Positions 46,954 through 57,531 of a DNA stretch of 64,000 bases are shown one piece after another. The notes beneath the pieces are model-generated. The model made no database searches, had not been told where the DNA came from, and saw nothing but the letters and a program-made list of their open reading frames with translations. The translations under genes and the position numbers were made by a program. Numbering within the stretch: the stretch's first letter is position 1; each line of letters starts with the position of its first letter. Location: assembly GCA_937935155.1 (NCBI GenBank), contig CALGXY010000105.1, forward strand, positions 3,500 to 67,499. The letters are read 5' to 3'. This stretch comes from an uncultured Atopobium sp. (GTDB lineage: Bacteria; Actinomycetota; Coriobacteriia; Coriobacteriales; Atopobiaceae).

Positions 46954-48357
46954 CTAGTTGATCAGCGATGCAGGAGTTGGGATGAATCCCTCAAAAATGA
47001 CAGGCGCACCTTCAAGCTCGGAGGCAATCATGTCCTCCTCGCTCCTAACGGTCCAGGTAATGAGATGTGCGCCCATGGTATTGCAAGCCAGCTTAACAAA
47101 GGGATTCTTGCGATCTTCAAACTTGTAAGAAATGAAGTCTGGACGACCAACAGAATTACCAAAGAGAGCTGTAGCACCAGCTCGTGTAGCAATGTTCATG
47201 TGCTTGGTCTGGCGGTCAACCAGGAAATTCTCTGAGAGTTGGCCACGAAGCATCTCAGGACGGTTCTGACGCAGCCACTGCAAAACGCGAGGATCAAAGC
47301 TCTCGATGCATGCACGAACGGGACGAAGATCAAGAGCCTGCATGATCTTTTCTGTCAGCTGCTCAGCGTTATTGTTGCGCGTCTTAGCCTCAATAATCAA
47401 AGGTGCAGGTAGCTCACCGGAGCCACTCCATGCATAAACCTCAAGGACTTCCTCAAACGTTGGAATCTGCTCGTCAGTAGCAAGAAGTCTCAAGCCACGG
47501 AGCTCTTCAAGTGTGGACTCCTCAACAATCTTCTGTACGCCACAGAGGCGATCAAGTGCTGAATCGTGAACAACAACCAGCTTGTTGTCTGCCGTCAGGT
47601 GAACATCAACCTCGGAGCCAAAGCCCTTCTCGACAGCTGCGCGGAAAGCAAGCAGGGAGTTCTCTGGAATGCCCGCCTCGTTGTTGTAGAGGCCACGGTG
47701 AGCATAGCGATGACGAGCAATCTCGTGCCAACGCTCCAGGAGCAGGCGATCATTTTGCTTGCGAGGAGCAATGGAATAAGCACCGTATGCAGCCAAACCA
47801 AGAGCAGCACCAGCCACAACACCACCGGCAATTGCCGCATTTCTAAACGACTTACGCTTCTTGGTAGAAGCTAACAGAGCGTCAGAATCCTGTCCATCTT
47901 GAGCGGCAATTCCCTCAACAACATCTGCAACTGCGATATCTGCGGCAGCATCCTGATGCTCAGCCAGGGTCTCCCCCATCTCTTCAAGCGACTCTGCAGT
48001 GCTTGCAAGCTGCTTAGAAAGCTTGTTCTTTGGGCGAGAAAAACGATTCTCTAGATTAGACTGAAGCTGTGCCTGAGCGGCCAAAACTGAAGTCTGAGCC
48101 GAACGAAGCGCAGACTGAGCGCGAGCGACTGATGACTGAATAGCATCGCCGCTTGGCAGTGCTGGCCTGATATGAGCATTAAACCCAGCTGTAAGCTGCT
48201 CTTTTGCGATATTGCCTGCTAAGTTAGCAGCCTTAGAAGCCGTTGTAGCAAGCAGCTTTCTTCCAGCCTCGGATTGAAGTGCTGCCTTTGCGGCATACTG
48301 AGTAATTGCTAAACCTGCAGCTCTAACTGCAGCTCTCTTAATAAAACGACCAATCAT
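46954..48357 (-). CDS. Glycerophosphodiester phosphodiesterase with long Ala-rich N-terminal extension
   Basis: AHRGL, PENS, EVDVH, VVHD, IEAK, ESFDP, WTV. Confidence 0.9.
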   Translation of the reverse strand: MIGRFIKRAAVRAAGLAITQYAAKAALQSEAGRKLLATTASKAANLAGNIAKEQLTAGFNAHIRPALPSGDAIQSSVARAQSALRSAQTSVLAAQAQLQSNLENRFSRPKNKLSKQLASTAESLEEMGETLAEHQDAAADIAVADVVEGIAAQDGQDSDALLASTKKRKSFRNAAIAGGVVAGAALGLAAYGAYSIAPRKQNDRLLLERWHEIARHRYAHRGLYNNEAGIPENSLLAFRAAVEKGFGSEVDVHLTADNKLVVVHDSALDRLCGVQKIVEESTLEELRGLRLLATDEQIPTFEEVLEVYAWSGSGELPAPLIIEAKTRNNNAEQLTEKIMQALDLRPVRACIESFDPRVLQWLRQNRPEMLRGQLSENFLVDRQTKHMNIATRAGATALFGNSVGRPDFISYKFEDRKNPFVKLACNTMGAHLITWTVRSEEDMIASELEGAPVIFEGFIPTPASLIN

Positions 48358-48502
48358 GTAAGCTCCCTTCAATCTAGCTTTATTCTATCAGTCCAGTTCT
48401 CGCTTTTTCGCTACGTATTGCGACTTTCTGTGCGTAATCAGTATCTTTGTCTGTTCAAAATCGAGTAGTATGTAGTCCACTAACTACTATCTCAGGAGCA
48501 TC

Positions 48503-50251
48503 ATGGCTGTTATAAAACAAGAACACGCTCTCTACCTGTATAAACTACTCAAAGCAACCATTGGCGTCTCTAAGCAGACTCCCCTCTCTGCCGTTGAGGG
48601 CGTGCTCATTGAAGACGACCTTACACCGCAGGATTTTGGCTTTGACGACATCCGCGCGCTCATGGAGGCGTGCCCCGATTTCATCAAAATCACTGCGTTC
48701 AAAAAAGGCTACGTCTACGCAACGCTTCTGTCCTTTGATACCTTTGAAGCTGCCCTTGCTGCTGGCGAGAAAAACGTCGAGTCGCAAAACAATGGCAAAC
48801 CATGGAAACGCCGACGTGGGGCAAAGTCCATTCGAGCTCTCAAGCCAAAGCACCTGGTAGCTGAGACAGAGCCTGAAACGGAAGAACTTCCTACCCAAGA
48901 AGAACCGACGGAGACAGAAGAGGTGCCTGTCACGGAGAGCTCAGAGGAACTGCCAGCTGCAGAAACAGCACCAATCGTAGAGGAATCTGCTGCTGAGGCG
49001 CCTGTTGTAGCAACGCCTTGTGCTGAGGCGCCTGAAGAAGATCTCCAGCAAGAATCTGCCGATGATGCCGCTCCAGAGCCTGCTGGAACCGATGACGCAT
49101 CTCCAGAACCTGTCGAAACCGAAACGCCAGCTCCAGAGCCTAAAGCTGCCGAGCCTACAGTGCCCGAACCTGTAGTGCCCGAGCCTACAGTGCCTGAGCC
49201 TACCATCTCGCTTACCGTTACCTACAACCCCTACGACGGCTCCGATGAAGAGAAGACACTTGAGGCCGCTCCTTCAGTATTGCAACAGGCACTGAATGCA
49301 ACAAGTTCTGTCTCTAACACTACAGTTTCTGAATCCCAGGCTTCTACGCAGGCAATCAATCAGGATGAAATTCCTGCCCCTACCCCAACATACCCTGCCA
49401 ATTTTGAGGAAGATATCCACGTCAACAATGATCTTCTCGGCATTTTGTATCAGATGGCTCCCGTCGACGCCAACGTCCTCAAGCAGCTAGAAGAAGACTT
49501 CAAACTTGCCGAGGCTTCTCGCGCACTCATTTCTAAGGGTGGCACGTTCACGTTTAACACGCGTTACAAGAAACCGCAGACAGACGAGGTTATTACCGCT
49601 ACCATTCGCAAATCTAAGCGCGGGGCTCTGCGTCCCTGGACGCTTTTGGAGCTCAGCGTTTCCGCAGATGAATTGCATGATCAGACAGTTGACGTGCTTC
49701 GTGGACTGCCAAAGTCTGCCATTGCTTCGTGGGAAAAGCTCCCTGCAGCGGCAAAGCAGCTGCCTGTCAACCCAGTTGACGTGGTTATGAACGAGGCTCC
49801 TGTCTCCGACTGGAACGCGCTTTGCACCACCTATCTGAGCGACGCGCCCTCGTTGCAGGCAGCGCAAGCTTGCCTTTCCGCAGCGTACGTCTACAGAAAG
49901 AACGAGCAGCAGCTCATGCATACTGACGCTGACTTTTCGCTTCCCGTTCCAGGTGCCGCGCCTCTGCTCTTTGATCCCGAGTGCGGATTTGATGACGACT
50001 CGCCTCTGGTGCAAAACGCCCTGCGAGCAGCAAAACATGGATGGCGCATGGCCGTTGAGCTCTACAATCCATCCAGACACTGCGTCTACCTTGCGCTTCC
50101 TACCTCTGATGGCGAGAAACCCCTTGCGCTGGTATTTGATGCATCAGCAGAGGGCCCTTATCACGTTGTTGCAGCGCTAACTATTGAAGAAGCGTATCCA
50201 CTTGCACGTATCTTCTCTGACGGCCTTCCTAGCTGGATTTTGCCACAGTAA
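48503..50251 (+). CDS. Hypothetical protein: OST/LOTUS-like N-domain, acidic Pro/Glu linker, DUF3825-like C-terminus
   Basis: DFGFDDIRALMEACPDFI; EPTVP repeats; LALP..LALV..Y..LT.EEAY..AR....W C-terminal pattern. Domain names are from recall. Confidence 0.6.
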   Translation: MAVIKQEHALYLYKLLKATIGVSKQTPLSAVEGVLIEDDLTPQDFGFDDIRALMEACPDFIKITAFKKGYVYATLLSFDTFEAALAAGEKNVESQNNGKPWKRRRGAKSIRALKPKHLVAETEPETEELPTQEEPTETEEVPVTESSEELPAAETAPIVEESAAEAPVVATPCAEAPEEDLQQESADDAAPEPAGTDDASPEPVETETPAPEPKAAEPTVPEPVVPEPTVPEPTISLTVTYNPYDGSDEEKTLEAAPSVLQQALNATSSVSNTTVSESQASTQAINQDEIPAPTPTYPANFEEDIHVNNDLLGILYQMAPVDANVLKQLEEDFKLAEASRALISKGGTFTFNTRYKKPQTDEVITATIRKSKRGALRPWTLLELSVSADELHDQTVDVLRGLPKSAIASWEKLPAAAKQLPVNPVDVVMNEAPVSDWNALCTTYLSDAPSLQAAQACLSAAYVYRKNEQQLMHTDADFSLPVPGAAPLLFDPECGFDDDSPLVQNALRAAKHGWRMAVELYNPSRHCVYLALPTSDGEKPLALVFDASAEGPYHVVAALTIEEAYPLARIFSDGLPSWILPQ

Positions 50252-50800: not shown

Positions 50801-51115
50801 GTGGATGCACAGCTGAAGCGTGGATTTCTTGATATCTGCGTCCTCGCAGCCATAGCCCGCAAAGATTCCTACGGGTATCAAATCATCCGGGATGCCCCTG
50901 CATCGCTTGAGCTCTCCGAGTCAACGCTCTATCCCATTTTGAAACGTCTTGCTAAGCAACATTTCCTTTCCGAATACACACGTGAGCACAACGGTCGTCT
51001 CCGCAAATATTATTTGATTACTGACGCGGGACACTTAGAGCTCTCACGATTTATCGCTGATGAGGCCTCCATTACAGACATTCTCTCCTACATTAAAGAA
51101 GGAGCATCGTCATGA
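50801..51115 (+). CDS. PadR family transcriptional regulator
   Basis: QLKRGFLDICVL, SYGYQI, ESTLYPILKRL, RKYYLIT. Confidence 0.95.
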   Translation: MDAQLKRGFLDICVLAAIARKDSYGYQIIRDAPASLELSESTLYPILKRLAKQHFLSEYTREHNGRLRKYYLITDAGHLELSRFIADEASITDILSYIKEGASS

Positions 51116-51942
51116 AAAAGGATGAGTTTCTTGCCGAACTTCGCGCAAACCTTAAGAAAAAGCATGTTCCCAAAAACAGCATTGATGATGCTCTTGCCTA
51201 TTACGACGAGGCAATACACGACCGTATGGAAGACGGTATGTCCGAGGAAAAAGCCGTAGCAGCCATGGGAAGCATTGATGATGCGGTTCAATCAGCACTG
51301 GAGAGTATGCCTGCGTTTCTACGCGCAACTCAGCGTATCCGCTCTGATTCGGTACTTATGTCCATAACTATCGTACTTCTCGTCATAGGCGCTATTGTCT
51401 GGATACCCCTTACGTTTGTCCTCGCACTTACGGCATTGAGCATTTATTTTGTAATTTGGGCACTTGTTATTTCATTATGCTTTGCAGTTGCCTGTGGTCT
51501 TTTCTGCGGAGTAATGAGCATCCCGGCACTTGTAGTGGGATTTCTGCACGACATGTTCCTTTCCGGCGCGCTTTCTGCCGGTGTGTTTCTGCTCATAGGA
51601 GGTGTTTCCATACTGGTAATACCGATAGTAGCTCGCATAATGCATTCTCTCGTGCAAAGCGCACGAGACTATGCAAAGTGGATTGCTCATTTCTTTGCAC
51701 AAGTTCCTGCCGAGAAGACCACAGCCTCCACGGAGCGAACAAATACAACGTCATGGTCAGAAGGACATTCGAAAAGACTGCTCTCGCTGTTCGGTGGTAT
51801 TTTTATCGCAATTGGCCTTGTATTGATTCTTGTTGCGTATGTGGGGTCAGGATGCAACCTTGCAGGTTTACCTGAGCTTCCTGCACTACAGATTTCTTCT
51901 TGCTCGCTTTATATGAGTCCGCATACTATTGCGTTTATGTAA
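51112..51942 (+). CDS. DUF1700/HAAS-domain membrane protein
   Basis: MKKDEFLAEL, YYDEAIHDRMEDGMSEEKAVAAMGS followed by TM helices; coupled to padR. Confidence 0.88.
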   Translation: MKKDEFLAELRANLKKKHVPKNSIDDALAYYDEAIHDRMEDGMSEEKAVAAMGSIDDAVQSALESMPAFLRATQRIRSDSVLMSITIVLLVIGAIVWIPLTFVLALTALSIYFVIWALVISLCFAVACGLFCGVMSIPALVVGFLHDMFLSGALSAGVFLLIGGVSILVIPIVARIMHSLVQSARDYAKWIAHFFAQVPAEKTTASTERTNTTSWSEGHSKRLLSLFGGIFIAIGLVLILVAYVGSGCNLAGLPELPALQISSCSLYMSPHTIAFM

Positions 51943-52009
51943 CTCAATTGACGCAACCCACACAGATACCCGCAGGTATCCGGATCCTACGTTACGTATC
52001 CGAAACTGA

Positions 52010-52295: not shown

Positions 52296-52937
52296 TTAAT
52301 TTTCGGTTTCTGAATCCAGTGCCGGACCTATCGCTTTTATGAGATATCCATTCTCATCGAACTCATAATAGTAGTCATCAACTATTGCTAGCCCATGTGA
52401 AAAAAGGTAGCCGTTGATTTGTCGGTACGCTTTGTGTCCATCAACCGTTACCCAACCGAAGGGAAGTTTCCATTCAAAAGGTCCAAGTTCTACAGAGCCG
52501 TCTCTTACTTCCTTGTAGTCGTCAAGAGAAATTTCCTCCAAATCCACGAGTTTGAAGGACTCGTAATTGCCGGCAAGAGCGGAGAACCTTAAAGTTCCGA
52601 GCTCTTGCATGACATATCCCACAGGTTTATCTCTATATCGAATCTCCCAAATAAGGTTGTTCCGGGTTTCTGGTTTTACTCCTATATAGCAACTGCCAAG
52701 CGTGAGCTTCATATAGTCGATGTCTTTGAGGTAAGGCTTTCCGCCGTCTCCTTCTTGCCTGGCGGTATTGATAGCTTCTTGTGTGGCCCGCTCTACCGCT
52801 TTTTGCTGAAGTGAGTCAATTGCCCATGGGTAGGGCGTAGCAAATGCATTCCACAAGAGGAAGACAGTGGCCATAAGAAACAGAACTATAGAGATAATCT
52901 TTAGAGGCAGCCATTTATGTTTCTTGTTCATAGTCAT
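52296..52937 (-). CDS. Hypothetical membrane-anchored protein with C-terminal cell-wall-binding-like repeat
   Basis: N-terminal TM; GWVTVDGHKAY...YYYEFDENGYL. Confidence 0.75.
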   Translation of the reverse strand: MTMNKKHKWLPLKIISIVLFLMATVFLLWNAFATPYPWAIDSLQQKAVERATQEAINTARQEGDGGKPYLKDIDYMKLTLGSCYIGVKPETRNNLIWEIRYRDKPVGYVMQELGTLRFSALAGNYESFKLVDLEEISLDDYKEVRDGSVELGPFEWKLPFGWVTVDGHKAYRQINGYLFSHGLAIVDDYYYEFDENGYLIKAIGPALDSETEN

Positions 52938-53300
52938 CACGCAGCCTCAACTAGTGGCTTATATGCTTTAGGAACAATGTTTCCTGGTAGTGCTTTATGC
53001 GCTTCACCCCTTGCATTAAATTCGTAGGTAACACCACCAATGCGAGCTTTTTGCGCGTAAATCATAGAGCCGGTAGGACCTCCTGAAACAGGCTGATTAT
53101 TGTCATAGCGTAGATAGTAGCTGCTGCCTCCGTAAGAGAGCCAGCCAGTACGCATTGAACCATCTTGGTTAAGGTAGAAGGTATGACCGGAACTATTAAG
53201 CCATCCTGTTTGCATTATTCCGCTTGAGCTTAAGTAATACCAAGAGCCTCCCCGCTCCAGCCAACCGGTAGCCATTGATCCATCGGAGTTAAAGAAATAC
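52937..53300 (-). pseudogene. C-terminal fragment of a cell-wall/choline-binding-repeat protein
   Basis: Three YxxxxxGxMxTGWL repeats beginning abruptly; no plausible N-terminus or signal peptide. Confidence 0.75.
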
Positions 53301-53348
53301 GGCAGTGGGCACGCCGGGTTTCTCGCCAGGCGCGTCAAAGCACCCAGC

Positions 53349-55478
53349 TTAGTCATGCCATGGTTCAACAGGCCATTCGTTGCCCGTGAGGCTCCAATTC
53401 TTCATGTCATTGGCGTCGCCGTTAATGACAAACTCCCTGACAAAGATGTCTTGCTTGCCGTTTGAAATGGTCTCGATATAGTAACGAGGACGAGTCTCGC
53501 CCTCATAGGACTCGTCAAGCGGTGTGGTGTAGTTAGAAAGCGTCTGCTGGTCAACGCCCATGTCCTTCAGCGTCTGCGCCAAAATGTCGTAGTGCCAGAC
53601 AGGCGCGTCAGAAATCTGCATAGGCTGAGCCGCCTCTTCAGCGGTCTGACCAGCTGGTTTATACATAATGACTGGAGCAGAAGGTGTCTGAATATCGCTG
53701 CCCGTCAAGTACCAGTCACCATGATCTGCGGTAATGATGAAAGACGTGTTTTCATACACACCAAGACGCTTAAGCTCAGCGATATACTGCGCAACAATCC
53801 TATACGCGCCAATAGTCTGCTCATCAACGTTTTGCTTGCTTGGATCTTCAGTGCGCTCAACGTTGCGATCAAGCGTGTAAGGTGGATGCGAGCCAAACAG
53901 ATGAATAAAACGGAATGAACCGTTCTGACCAGCGCTGTCGTCAATCGAGAGTCCGTAGTGTTGAAGCTCCTGGTAATACTTGAGATCATCCTCGGTGTAT
54001 GGCTGTGAAGAGAGATCAACTTCGTCCATGTTGACTAACTTGCGCATGCGCATATTAAGATCCTCGGTATAATACCAGAATCGAGGCTTAAACACCCAAG
54101 GCATGTCCCTACAAAATGCCGTCTTATAGAGAATGCGCAGTGCACCTAGCACGTCTAACTGGTTATCTGTACCGCGACCACGAGGCTCGTGGTAGTTGAT
54201 GGAATACTTCTGCGCAGTGTCTCTGTAGTGAGAGTAGTTCAACTGATCCGTATACAAACCTGCTTGATATCCAGCATTCTGAATATCCTTGAGGTACTGA
54301 TCACTTTGTTCCCAGTTGTAGACAAAATCGTTGAAATTCTCGCCAGGCTGAGGACGAGAGCCAAAGAGCAGCGATGGAACACCGTAGCGCGTTGGAATCA
54401 TAGAACCGACGGAATTTCTGTACCAGGTAAAGCCGGTAAGAGACGCAAATGTCTCTGGATGCTCATCGTAGAGTCTCTGAATAAAAGCAGTGTCGGTAGT
54501 ATCAAGGACAAACACCACGACGTTCTTCTTGGAGGAAACGCTGTAGAGGCCCTCGCGCGTTGCGATAACCTGCTGGTTTTCGGCATGAGCATCTATCGAC
54601 GCTGCGATTGCAGGACCCCAGAGACTTGCAACGCCCACTGTCTGGACAACGACAAGAGCGGTTGCGGTTACCAGAAGACCTGTTCTAAGCTGACGTGCTT
54701 TTAGGAGCGAGAAGGTCACTGCAGCTGCAATGATTGCCAGCCAAATGAGGCCAGAGACAATCATTTGAGTTGTAAAATCTGACCAAATAACTGCATGTCC
54801 GTCGGCAAGTGGCATACCACCGTTCAAGAATACTGCCTGGACGTATGACGCCACACCGATGGCTCCTATAAACGCAACGGCAACGTTAAACGCGCGCTTG
54901 CGCAGGAGCGATAGAAATACTGTAAGAATGATCGTAATAATAAGGCCTGCAATAATAACGGGACCTGCAACATCATTGAGGTTGAAAGAAAGGTCTCGCG
55001 CATTGCTTGCTACCAGCTCAAGTGGGGCTACAACCAAGATAGTAAAGACAGTAAAGAAAGAGACAAGAAATGCGACACCAATGCGACCCTTAGGTTTGAG
55101 GGTTCCCTCTTTTTGTTCCTTGAGACGGACGGCCTCTGCTGCAAGGATTTCTTTCATCTGAGTATTTGCAGCTTCTGCACCTTTGGCGTCAATCTTGTGA
55201 ACTTTGCCTTCGACAATCTTATTGGCGTTCTCATCAATCTTAAGCAGACGGAAGAGCACCTTACGAGAACGCCTAAACGCAACGCCAAGGACCGCAGAGA
55301 GCGCAACTACAACTGCTGCCAATGCCTGGATGGTGTAGGTCATAACTGACGGGTCAACGTAAGCCTGAGCTGTTGCTGGTAGAAGTGCCCACCACGCAAA
55401 CGTCAGTACTGCGACAAAAAACGCTCCATGAAGGAAGGACGCGCGGCTTTGAATAGCGGCGCTGCAAGAGTTTCTCAT
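53349..55478 (-). CDS. Membrane-bound sulfatase/alkaline-phosphatase-superfamily (LtaS-like) protein with N-terminal YVDP hydrophobic module
   Basis: AQA|YVDPS signal junction, 5-6 TM, VLDT, IPTRY (Thr nucleophile candidate), HLFGSHPPY, TADHG; start reset to MRNS. Confidence 0.85.
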   Translation of the reverse strand: MRNSCSAAIQSRASFLHGAFFVAVLTFAWWALLPATAQAYVDPSVMTYTIQALAAVVVALSAVLGVAFRRSRKVLFRLLKIDENANKIVEGKVHKIDAKGAEAANTQMKEILAAEAVRLKEQKEGTLKPKGRIGVAFLVSFFTVFTILVVAPLELVASNARDLSFNLNDVAGPVIIAGLIITIILTVFLSLLRKRAFNVAVAFIGAIGVASYVQAVFLNGGMPLADGHAVIWSDFTTQMIVSGLIWLAIIAAAVTFSLLKARQLRTGLLVTATALVVVQTVGVASLWGPAIAASIDAHAENQQVIATREGLYSVSSKKNVVVFVLDTTDTAFIQRLYDEHPETFASLTGFTWYRNSVGSMIPTRYGVPSLLFGSRPQPGENFNDFVYNWEQSDQYLKDIQNAGYQAGLYTDQLNYSHYRDTAQKYSINYHEPRGRGTDNQLDVLGALRILYKTAFCRDMPWVFKPRFWYYTEDLNMRMRKLVNMDEVDLSSQPYTEDDLKYYQELQHYGLSIDDSAGQNGSFRFIHLFGSHPPYTLDRNVERTEDPSKQNVDEQTIGAYRIVAQYIAELKRLGVYENTSFIITADHGDWYLTGSDIQTPSAPVIMYKPAGQTAEEAAQPMQISDAPVWHYDILAQTLKDMGVDQQTLSNYTTPLDESYEGETRPRYYIETISNGKQDIFVREFVINGDANDMKNWSLTGNEWPVEPWHD

Positions 55479-55494
55479 GGTAGAAGTTGTTGTT

Positions 55495-57531
55495 TTAGTC
55501 ACGAGAAACACCGTCCTCATCAGTTGTCTTTGTGGCGTCTTTAGTGGAGCTGACGTCGTCGCTTTTCTCGTCATCGTCTGCAGCGTCCGCAGCAGCGTTC
55601 TTCTTGGTAGTAGCGTTGTCTGCAACCTCAGCGGCAGCCTCTTCCTGGTGCGCCAAAACGCGCTCGAGGATGAACTTACCTGCGGCTTCTCCACCGTGGC
55701 CGAGATTAAAGATCATGTTGTTACGAATCTCTTCAATCTTGTGCGACCAGCTATCGGTTTCCTCCAGCATCTGCGCAACCGCGTCGCCAAGGCCCGAGAG
55801 GTCCTTAGGATCAAAGCTGCGGCCAATCTCATTTCTGAGTGTAATGTCGCATGGATCCGAATGAATCTTGCTCCAGTCAGGGTTGTTCTCCTTCATCGCG
55901 GTGTCAATGAAGACCGACGGCTTGAGCGTGGTAAACGAGAACTCCTCAGCAACACTCGACCAGTCAGTAAACAGCAGGTCAGCCGAGAGAACCGAAGTAT
56001 TGGAGCTGAAGTCGGTCTCAAAGGAGAGCTCCTCTGGGTCCGCGTCAGCGTAGCGAGCAAGAATCTCCTCCATACGGGCAGGATAGCGCTTCAAATACTC
56101 TGGGTGTGGGCGGACCACAATGCGCCAGCCGCGGCCCATGAGCTGCTCAAGCAGGCCGTCAAGGCAGCTGTCCATCAAGTTGTCGTACTGCCACGAAGGA
56201 CCAATCAGCAACAGGGGTTTCTCGCCAGGTTTGCGCTGGCCCAGATTCTGCTTCTGGTAGTTTTTGATTGACCTATCGAGAAGATCGTAGCCAATAGCAG
56301 GCTTTCTCTTGGATGGCGTACCGTAGTACTTCTCGACCAGCTCAAGATCATGCTGCTGATGAGGGCCAACGCAGAGGACGTCGTCGTAGTAGGTGTACTC
56401 GTTGCGCGTTGAGGTAACCGTCATGGAAGTCATGTGGTGGCACATATACATGTACTCAGCGTCTTTGCGCACGTAGGAGCGCTTCATGTAGGAGCTCTCC
56501 AGGTCGCCGAGGGAAGTTACCACAACATCAGCGTCGAGCTTCATGAAAAGCGTGATAAGGCGACGCTGACCCAAGTAATACGGAATCAGGCGAGGCTGCT
56601 GTTTTGCCAGTTCAAAGACCTGGTCGTTAGGGTCAGAGGTGACATAGTGGATACGAATGTCAGAGTTTGCCAGCAGCCACTCGATGGCGCCCTGGAAGTA
56701 CTTGTAGAAGCCGCTTGACTCGGAATAGAAAACCAGGTGCTTGCCGATGGTGTCAAAGAAGCGCTTGTAGTCCTCTTTTTCGCGAGCGGCATGAGGATCG
56801 CGCTGGAACCACTTGTGAGTGGACTTGGTTGCTGCGTCCATTGCCTCAAACTCGTCGCGAGCAGCATTGAGATCGTCGTAATCAACCTGCTTACGAGGGT
56901 CGATGATGATGTTGCAGACAATTTGGACCAGGATTGAGAGAAGGTTTGAGCAAACCCAATAGAATGCCATGCCACAGACAACGTAGACTGCAAGTACCAG
57001 CGACATTGCAATAGAAAGGCCGTTTGTGGTGTTCTTCTCTGCACGAGACTGCTCGCGCTGAAGCGGATTCAGCTTGTTGGAAGCAAGACCAAGAGCAACC
57101 GAGGACAAAGCTGCTGCCAGTGGCATAATCCAGGTGATACCGCCATCGATGATTGGGGTCATGCCCAAAAACTCTGTGCCAGGCGCACCAGAATCGGTGA
57201 TGCCATGGATAACGTCAACTAGGCCGAACAGGATGACTACCTGGATTGCCAGAGGAATAAGACTCAATAGCGGGTGATAGCCTGCCTTTTTGTTGAGCTC
57301 GTTGGAGCGCTCCTCGATGGTCTCCCTGTCGCCGAAGTAGCGAGTCTTTAAGCGGAAGGTCTCGGGCATAAGGCGCACCATAACAATAGAATTTTGTTGT
57401 GTCCAAAGTGCCAGAGGCATCAGGATGATTTTAGTTGCAAGAGTAAAAAGAAAGATTGCCGCCCACCAACTGCCGGTCAAGTCGTATGCGGGCTGAACGA
57501 TAAGTGAAAAAACGTGTGCAAGCTGCTCCAT
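55495..57531 (-). CDS. Fusion: YidC/Oxa1 insertase domain + CDP-glycerol glycerophosphotransferase (TagB/TagF-like) domain
   Basis: WWAAIFLFTLATKIILMPL, GYHPLLSLIPLAIQ, GMAFYWVCSNL; then GPSW, RPHP, TDWSSVAEEF. Confidence 0.85.
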   Translation of the reverse strand: MEQLAHVFSLIVQPAYDLTGSWWAAIFLFTLATKIILMPLALWTQQNSIVMVRLMPETFRLKTRYFGDRETIEERSNELNKKAGYHPLLSLIPLAIQVVILFGLVDVIHGITDSGAPGTEFLGMTPIIDGGITWIMPLAAALSSVALGLASNKLNPLQREQSRAEKNTTNGLSIAMSLVLAVYVVCGMAFYWVCSNLLSILVQIVCNIIIDPRKQVDYDDLNAARDEFEAMDAATKSTHKWFQRDPHAAREKEDYKRFFDTIGKHLVFYSESSGFYKYFQGAIEWLLANSDIRIHYVTSDPNDQVFELAKQQPRLIPYYLGQRRLITLFMKLDADVVVTSLGDLESSYMKRSYVRKDAEYMYMCHHMTSMTVTSTRNEYTYYDDVLCVGPHQQHDLELVEKYYGTPSKRKPAIGYDLLDRSIKNYQKQNLGQRKPGEKPLLLIGPSWQYDNLMDSCLDGLLEQLMGRGWRIVVRPHPEYLKRYPARMEEILARYADADPEELSFETDFSSNTSVLSADLLFTDWSSVAEEFSFTTLKPSVFIDTAMKENNPDWSKIHSDPCDITLRNEIGRSFDPKDLSGLGDAVAQMLEETDSWSHKIEEIRNNMIFNLGHGGEAAGKFILERVLAHQEEAAAEVADNATTKKNAAADAADDDEKSDDVSSTKDATKTTDEDGVSRD

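Follow-up and report, generated by a model that had tools for sequence, protein, structure and literature searches.

In a 64,000-nucleotide (nt) stretch of DNA from an uncultured Atopobium sp. (contig CALGXY010000105.1; this whole stretch is called the window below), two co-oriented genes on the minus strand lie 16 nt apart. The upstream gene, Y (55495..57531), encodes a YidC-like membrane core fused to a TagF-like domain, which we call T. The downstream gene, S (53349..55478), encodes a small membrane element, D, fused to an LtaS/EptA-type phosphotransferase with five transmembrane (TM) helices. From the sequences we propose that the four parts, Y, T, D, and S, may form a relay in which a tyrosine of D carries the cargo, and we put the probability of this reading at roughly 0.37. 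We consider it very probable that the four parts act together on a single cargo.

Y is read in a single frame from an ATG at 57531 to a TAA at 55495 (minus strand), with no internal stop, and encodes 678 amino acids (aa). Its YidC-like core (56887..57531, aa 1-215) consists of an amphipathic lead helix, five hydrophobic helices within aa 24-210, and a C1 coiled-coil region. The Pfam model PF02096 matched aa 22-207 above its cut-off (E 7e-27, 94.9 bits against 35), and TIGR03592 scored slightly below its own (80.3 against 84.3). A sequence-only reading of this DNA had described a YidC core joined to a TagF-like domain, with lysine in place of the conserved groove arginine; both points held, and Lys34 aligns with the groove arginine of the E. 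coli and B. halodurans YidC proteins. All 92 aligned Y sequences have a positive groove residue (84 Lys, 8 Arg), and canonical YidC has Arg in 17/17. Y shares with the YidC/SpoIIIJ insertases (B. halodurans YidC2, 3WO6/3WO7; E. coli YidC, 3WVF) the 5-TM core, the C1 coiled coil, the positive groove residue, and the conserved Pro39, Gln97, Tyr-Trp, and Asn196. It differs from them in the lysine, in a more polar groove, where conserved Ser, Asn, and Gln residues of TM3-TM4 (S143, Q151, N152, N155, S173, S177) replace Met or hydrophobic residues, and in a 390-aa enzyme at the C-terminus. This enzyme, T, sits where canonical YidC has the C-terminus that belongs to the ribosome-binding site (PMC7618853, section 2). 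Y proteins also form their own clade: in a tree of 49 sequences, 31 Y domains and 17 canonical YidC proteins fell on separate sides (support 98/98 and 97/91), and the lone sequence from a Y-S fusion (locus L106), which has Asn at the position of the groove charge, had a long branch and was placed on neither side.

The genome has a separate canonical yidC, which the sequence-only reading had proposed to look for, on contig C50 in the order rpmH-rnpA-yidD-yidC-jag. Y is therefore neither at the housekeeping position nor the only yidC. Among 25 relatives searched, two PF02096 genes were found in 11 genomes with the module, one in 13 without it, and none in 1, and canonical YidC is present in 12/12 module genomes. 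With these results, we conclude that Y is a spare, second, dedicated YidC, patchy in distribution and dispensable, beside a housekeeping copy. A frameshift or assembly artefact as the origin of the fusion is ruled out by near-identical intact fusions in dozens of independent assemblies, including named records of Lancefieldella parvula and Atopobium sp. at 99-100% identity.

The T domain (55636..56796, minus strand; aa 246-632) is predicted to be cytoplasmic. It carries the motifs GPSW (aa 444-447), RPHP (aa 474-477; Arg474-Pro-His476-Pro), and TDWSS (aa 522-526; Asp523-x-Ser525). The domain check by hidden Markov model was mixed for the fusion and its partner: PF02096 passed, and PF04464 on Y (E 0.009, below the cut-off) and PF00884 on S (aa 400-638, E 2e-4) matched weakly. 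Most homologues scanned exceeded the PF04464 cut-off, and the ten best named Atlas matches to aa 246-632 all belong to the PF04464 family or clan. T is the sole PF04464 match in the genome, and it had no direct sequence match in the PDB. In 87 aligned sequences from three architectures, four residues were near-invariant: His365 (86/87), His476 (86/87), Arg474 (85/87), and Ser525 (87/87). Global alignment by hhalign to a bona fide TagF from locus L111 gave a probability of only 38% at ~17% identity, and through this protein His365 and His476 correspond to His444 and His584 of S. epidermidis TagF (3L7I), which we take to be its catalytic histidines. We conclude from these alignments that T is TagF-like, with both histidines at predicted catalytic positions. 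T shares with the TagF/TagB/TarL cytidine diphosphate (CDP)-polyol phosphotransferases the two histidines, Pro-Ser-Trp, Arg-x-His, and Asp-x-Ser; unlike them, it is fused to YidC or D, and most loci link it to LicC/PntC rather than TagD. A stand-alone TagD-like domain was seen beside Y-T at L110 only. Beyond T, Y ends in an acidic low-complexity tail of variable length (55498..55635, aa 633-678), and some relatives have their read-through fusions to S at this tail.

The start codon of S is uncertain. An ATG at 55478 yields 709 aa and fits the 16-bp spacing reported earlier; an in-frame GTG at 55502, which the public gene call P0121 takes as the start, yields 717 aa and would overlap the Y stop codon by 8 nt. 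Hydropathy and Lys/Arg bias predict a signal helix, a second helix, a 64-residue cytoplasmic linker, a five-helix membrane domain (54621..55082, minus strand; aa 133-286), and an extracytoplasmic domain of the alkaline-phosphatase superfamily (53352..54536, minus strand). A profile of S searched against the PDB had a phosphonate monoester hydrolase as its best match and also found LtaS, PbgA, and, weakly, MCR-1. When S was aligned to LtaS 2W5Q and to 4UPK, the threonine nucleophile and the Asp/His/Asp-His metal-ligand set were present, with roles that we take to be those of the LtaS residues. These positions are highly conserved: Asp326 in 64/64, Thr363, at the nucleophile position, in 62/63, and His531, Asp585, and His586 in 63/63 each. 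A true formylglycine sulfatase was rejected, because Thr363 stands at the Cys position with no Arg at +4 and the Cys/Ser-x-Pro-x-Arg motif is thus absent. S is predicted to be an LtaS/EptA-type phosphotransferase with a Thr nucleophile. It has the five TM helices, outer domain, nucleophile, and metal ligands of LtaS, LtaP, EptA/MCR, and PbgA; unlike these enzymes, it carries D and would depend on a cytoplasmic enzyme using a CDP or cytidine monophosphate (CMP) donor and on a YidC copy. The genome has a second D-S gene, on contig C14, with 77% identity to S.

The first ~90 residues of S are a separable small membrane protein, D, and the fourth part of the module. The sequence-only reading had proposed a two-gene surface-modification system; the conserved module, the dedicated second YidC, the inner TagF-like enzyme, and the outer LtaS-like enzyme all stood, but the parts are four and D had been overlooked. 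A predicted signal peptide (55362..55478, minus strand) ends in Ala-x-Ala (A37 in 56/60, A39 in 59/60) and is followed by D (55200..55361, minus strand; aa 40-93), which has a Tyr-x-Asp-Pro tip with its N-terminus outside, one TM helix, and a basic, then acidic, cytoplasmic tail. Because the basic patch trails the helix in 59/59 sequences, the tyrosine is predicted to lie outside. Tyr40 is invariant in D on S (60/60), and Asp42, Pro43, and Gln51 are nearly so. We compared mean pairwise identity within S using 22 sequences dereplicated at 70%, and found 0.87 for the D motif (a figure lowered by the L113 sequence, which has no D), against 0.48-0.58 near the active-site residues and 0.37 over the catalytic domain. 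D is, by this alignment, the best-conserved stretch of S.

D occurs as a free gene of 60-100 aa, at the N-terminus of S, or at the N-terminus of T. Stand-alone D genes adjoin Y-T in more distant, low-identity loci. As the N-terminus of T, D was found in 118/120 homologues of that architecture, each retaining the tyrosine, and the other two begin at a Met just past the motif; D was absent from 51/51 stand-alone T representatives. The tyrosine is the only hydroxyl shared by all D sequences, since L125 and L156 have Asn or Gly where others have Thr/Ser at +7. A six-frame motif search of the whole genome gave five matches, and only two, both S copies, had a hydrophobic helix behind the motif. Ala-x-Ala ahead of the tyrosine is retained in polyproteins (6/6 long fusions with D, plus L106 and L185), and an extra signal peptidase I gene was found in 3/30 locus groups, or fused to the module. 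The tyrosine follows only 3-15 residues, with no signal peptide, in several D genes and in every D-T fusion, so the constant feature seems to be a short N-out tip and not cleavage itself. D had no match in Pfam or NCBIfam, and its Atlas neighbours are unnamed clusters. Every Coriobacteriia S paralogue has its own D, the unlinked C14 copy included, and in the L125 group one free D accompanies two to three D-less S genes. That group belongs to L125-L153, strains of one gut lineage in which 0-3 tandem D-less S paralogues follow one Y-T and one D, and in which a nucleoside triphosphate (NTP)-transferase fusion and a signal peptidase have been gained and lost.

The pairing of Y and S, whose lack of conservation would have refuted the earlier reading, proved to be conserved. 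T and S occur in the identical set of 12/151 genomes of the class. We examined 158 loci, of which 142 had a near-complete Y-T and formed 30 groups at 80% identity; S was found in 24 of these and D beside Y-T in 27. Most of the misses are on short contigs, and in the three groups lacking D the DNA is cut, on one side or both, within 2, 295/324, and 1 bp. In L115, neither S nor D was found over 9.6 kb downstream (only 1 bp upstream), and L112 had no S match. Chance pairing of Y and S is ruled out by the shared genomes and the linkage within locus groups. The parts are also naturally fused, in the orders Y-T-D-S, Y-T-S, S-Y-T, Y-S plus D-T, signal peptidase-Y-T, and Y-T-choline kinase. A scan of 46 proteins identified Y-T-S fusions (P0241, P0242, P0245, P0251, P0257, P0263, P0274, and P0391), S-Y-T fusions (P0247, P0250, P0252, P0253, P0255, P0261, P0262, and P0264), a signal peptidase-Y-T fusion (P0269), and a Y-T-choline kinase fusion (P0281). 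L106 (L106:9998-21248) has the two architectures in tandem: a Y-T-D-S fusion and another module made of Y-S and D-T. Behind them come an NTP-transferase::CobD/HisC-like fusion and an octopine-dehydrogenase-like gene, and L160 has this last pair too. The Y-S plus D-T form had no separate match among the 151 class genomes, and plasmid searches returned no copy of the module. Within the same genus, L185:6464-10594 (G077) encodes Y-T-D-S in one frame, joined through the low-complexity tail. L053:10001-14184, from a complete-genome record, has several frameshifts in both genes that are possibly sequencing errors. More widely, 2435/8000 scored candidates matched at E <=0.001, a count that also covers proteins with T alone or plain YidC; at 1e-30, there were 368 matching clusters (50% identity).

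The genes beside the module indicate what it may carry. Pfam-verified neighbours are phosphoenolpyruvate (PEP) mutase with a cytidylyltransferase and a decarboxylase in L104, L108, L112, L113, and L156; NTP-transferase-aminotransferase fusions in L106, L111, L116, L137, and L160; and lic sets in L104, L107, and L182. Further matches to a PEP-mutase-like protein (L117 group), LicD (L103), and an NTP-transferase (L101) were unverified and were not used as evidence. In the genome studied here, a rhamnose-glycan cluster on C14 (L181; G000 C14:28000-44100) encodes a helix-turn-helix-LicC-LicA fusion, a LicB-like EamA transporter, two LicD proteins, and the second D-S gene, along with rhamnose synthesis, glycosyltransferases, a flippase, and DUF6541. 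LicC-LicA is present in all 12 module genomes and in 34/151 overall, and PEP mutase in 2/12. No PEP mutase was found in this 98.5% complete assembly, and we rejected a phosphonate cargo here; the two PF01467 cytidylyltransferase matches are both unlinked, on other contigs. CDP-choline genes, next to the second S copy, are the only donor set in the genome, and CDP-choline is therefore the likeliest donor. The polyol-phosphate cargo suggested earlier is unlikely here, given the C14 cluster and the relatives with phosphonate or amino-alcohol genes. We think it somewhat probable that the cargo in this genome is phosphocholine, although another amino-alcohol may be the substrate of LicA-like kinases. 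With this chassis, relatives would instead use CMP-aminoethyl- or CMP-hydroxyethyl-phosphonate or CDP-amino-alcohol phosphates. The Lic and Pnt pathways (LicABC-LicD; PntC, available text of PMC6697681) likewise use CDP-choline or CMP-aminoethylphosphonate as activated donors in surface tailoring, but LicD works in one step, unlike the proposed relay.

In the tyrosine-carrier relay, T would take phosphocholine off CDP-choline and load it onto D, at its N-terminal tyrosine. Through the YidC groove, this short tip would be able to move from the cytoplasmic face of the membrane to the outer one and back. On the outside, Thr363 of S would take over the group, and S would pass it to a cell-wall glycan, which would be the one encoded on C14. 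Loading by T, a crossing by some carrier, and unloading by S are suggested by the active sites facing opposite sides and being fused to a YidC fold, whose groove moves polar groups across membranes. The D tyrosine is our first choice of carrier because the invariant residues of D lie on the side away from T, because D is retained where Y already anchors T and in fusions that already link T to S, and because a single free D can suffice for several S genes that lack one. D is not likely to be a mere anchor for T, since an anchor needs no outer-face tyrosine and T here is already anchored by Y. Acyl transfer by DltX and PatA offers a precedent, in which a membrane microprotein, either free or fused, shuttles the group on a tyrosine (PMC12148441, in the text available). 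The classical YidC-only substrates are proteins with one or two helices and short loops (PMC7618853, available sections). Like Dlt (DltB-DltX-DltD) and PatA-PatB, the module would work with an inner loader, a small membrane peptide with an invariant tyrosine, and an outer transferase with a covalent intermediate; unlike them, it has unrelated folds, a phosphoryl rather than an acyl group, an N-terminal rather than a C-terminal tyrosine, and a YidC groove rather than an MBOAT funnel. The likeness is one of working only: Dlt and PatAB have MBOAT and SGNH proteins with a C-terminal F-x-Y-x-x-F motif, and no such domains were found in Y or S. Among relay readings, we give the D tyrosine, as opposed to a lipid, a little under even odds of being the carrier. 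It is a tentative further step that the YidC fold has become a cargo exporter that cycles a Tyr-tipped microprotein, with phosphocholine or phosphonates leaving as phosphotyrosine-type diesters.

Several observations weigh against this relay. T is cytoplasmic and the D tyrosine is predicted outside, so repeated loading would require reversible passage of D through YidC; we know of no precedent for such passage, and single use of D is implausible where it is fused to an enzyme. LtaS/EptA enzymes normally take lipid donors, and S retains a 5-TM domain resembling theirs. The D forms without a signal peptide count in the same direction. The D helix is only marginally hydrophobic, but TM3 and TM5 of S are likewise marginal, and this feature does not discriminate between the models. 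A nucleotidyltransferase lies near Y-T in only 11/30 locus groups within the locus DNA examined, 22 genomes have LicC-LicA without the module, and the C14 LicD proteins, known as phosphocholine transferases, could use up all the CDP-choline. Finally, eight of the 12 module genomes belong to one genus and do not represent 12 independent events.

The sequence-only reading had offered an insertase or a lipid mover, and we kept both as rivals, with the peptide carrier as a third option that fits the conservation pattern at least equally well. If the carrier were a lipid, T would load a lipid or glycolipid of the membrane, which would be scrambled outward in the YidC groove; S would use it as LtaS or EptA does, and D would dock S to Y-T. 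Lipid scrambling in vitro has been shown for E. coli YidC (PMC11047089, as far as available). The polar Ser, Asn, and Gln residues in TM3-TM4 of the Y clade and the private D of each Coriobacteriia S paralogue also agree with a lipid carrier, as do the lipid-linked sugar acceptors of the TagF family and the lipid donors of LtaS/EptA. It would leave unexplained, however, the invariance of D at the outer Tyr-x-Asp-Pro tip, the cleavage site kept directly ahead of the tyrosine, and the single free D for two to three D-less S genes, and the loci examined have no recurrent gene for lipid-carrier synthesis. We regard it as somewhat unlikely, only a little below the tyrosine relay.

Y might instead merely insert or assemble D and S, with D as an anchor or assembly subunit of T or S; T would decorate a glycan inside, an ordinary flippase would export it, and S, acting on its own, would take the groups that it adds from bulk phospholipids. 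The positive groove in every Y sequence aligned, the flippase or ABC-2 genes near some loci, and the acidic tip of D, which resembles procoat/Pf3-type substrates, speak for this. It has to contend with the canonical YidC in all module genomes, the Asn at the groove position in the L106 Y-S form, and T fused at the site of the ribosome-binding tail. LtaS-type enzymes elsewhere are not known to need a private YidC. We judge a private insertase unlikely. More improbable still, in our view, are a module that builds a polymer or acts on proteins or lipids instead of a glycan, and an S that trims phospho-groups as a hydrolase. The best PDB profile match of S is a hydrolase, TagF is itself a polymerase, and no glycan genes flank the operon in the window, but S has Thr without the formylglycine motif, the module and S copies are often within glycan clusters, and T has little identity to a true TagF.

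A scan for promoters and terminators gave counts at chance level (9 against 6.2 and 7 against 5.9). Just past S (52296-53368, minus strand) are a 143-aa open reading frame (ORF) with choline-binding repeats, probably a fragment, and a 214-aa ORF without known function; this pair occurs in 7/44 related loci spanning S to DUF3825, which marks it as a variable insert. A PadR regulator and a HAAS-domain membrane protein (50801-51945, plus strand) were present in 2/44 of these loci. The DUF3825 protein (48503-50251, plus strand) is, in Atopobiaceae, a recurrent convergent or nearby neighbour of the module. A glycerophosphodiester phosphodiesterase with a long N-terminal extension (46954-48372, minus strand) lies two genes beyond S in the usual gene order; it could free choline or glycerol phosphates, and a tie to the module is a mere possibility.

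A literature search aimed at the module found no paper describing it, with supplements outside its scope and subscription journals mostly missing. The main text of PMC6697681 had no match for TagF, glycerophosphotransferase, or YidC; the available text of PMC8942020, which describes one phosphonate cluster family with multiple sulfatases, had none for insertase, Oxa1, or glycerophosphotransferase. A relay of YidC, two phosphotransferases, and a Tyr-tipped helix would be undescribed. Most bacterial phosphonate clusters are thought to tailor surfaces, and the steps after CMP activation are stated to be unknown (PMC6697681, available text). The module names candidate enzymes for surface phosphonylation, testable in cultured oral and gut anaerobes. 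If the proposal is true, YidC would have a role beyond protein biogenesis, as a dedicated scramblase or a peptide-carrier shuttle, and there would be a LicD-independent path to outer-face phosphocholine. It would also provide a phosphoryl counterpart to the DltX acyl shuttle and a missing last step in bacterial surface phosphonylation. Even on the plainest reading, the module is a widespread, unstudied four-part envelope system with a private insertase.

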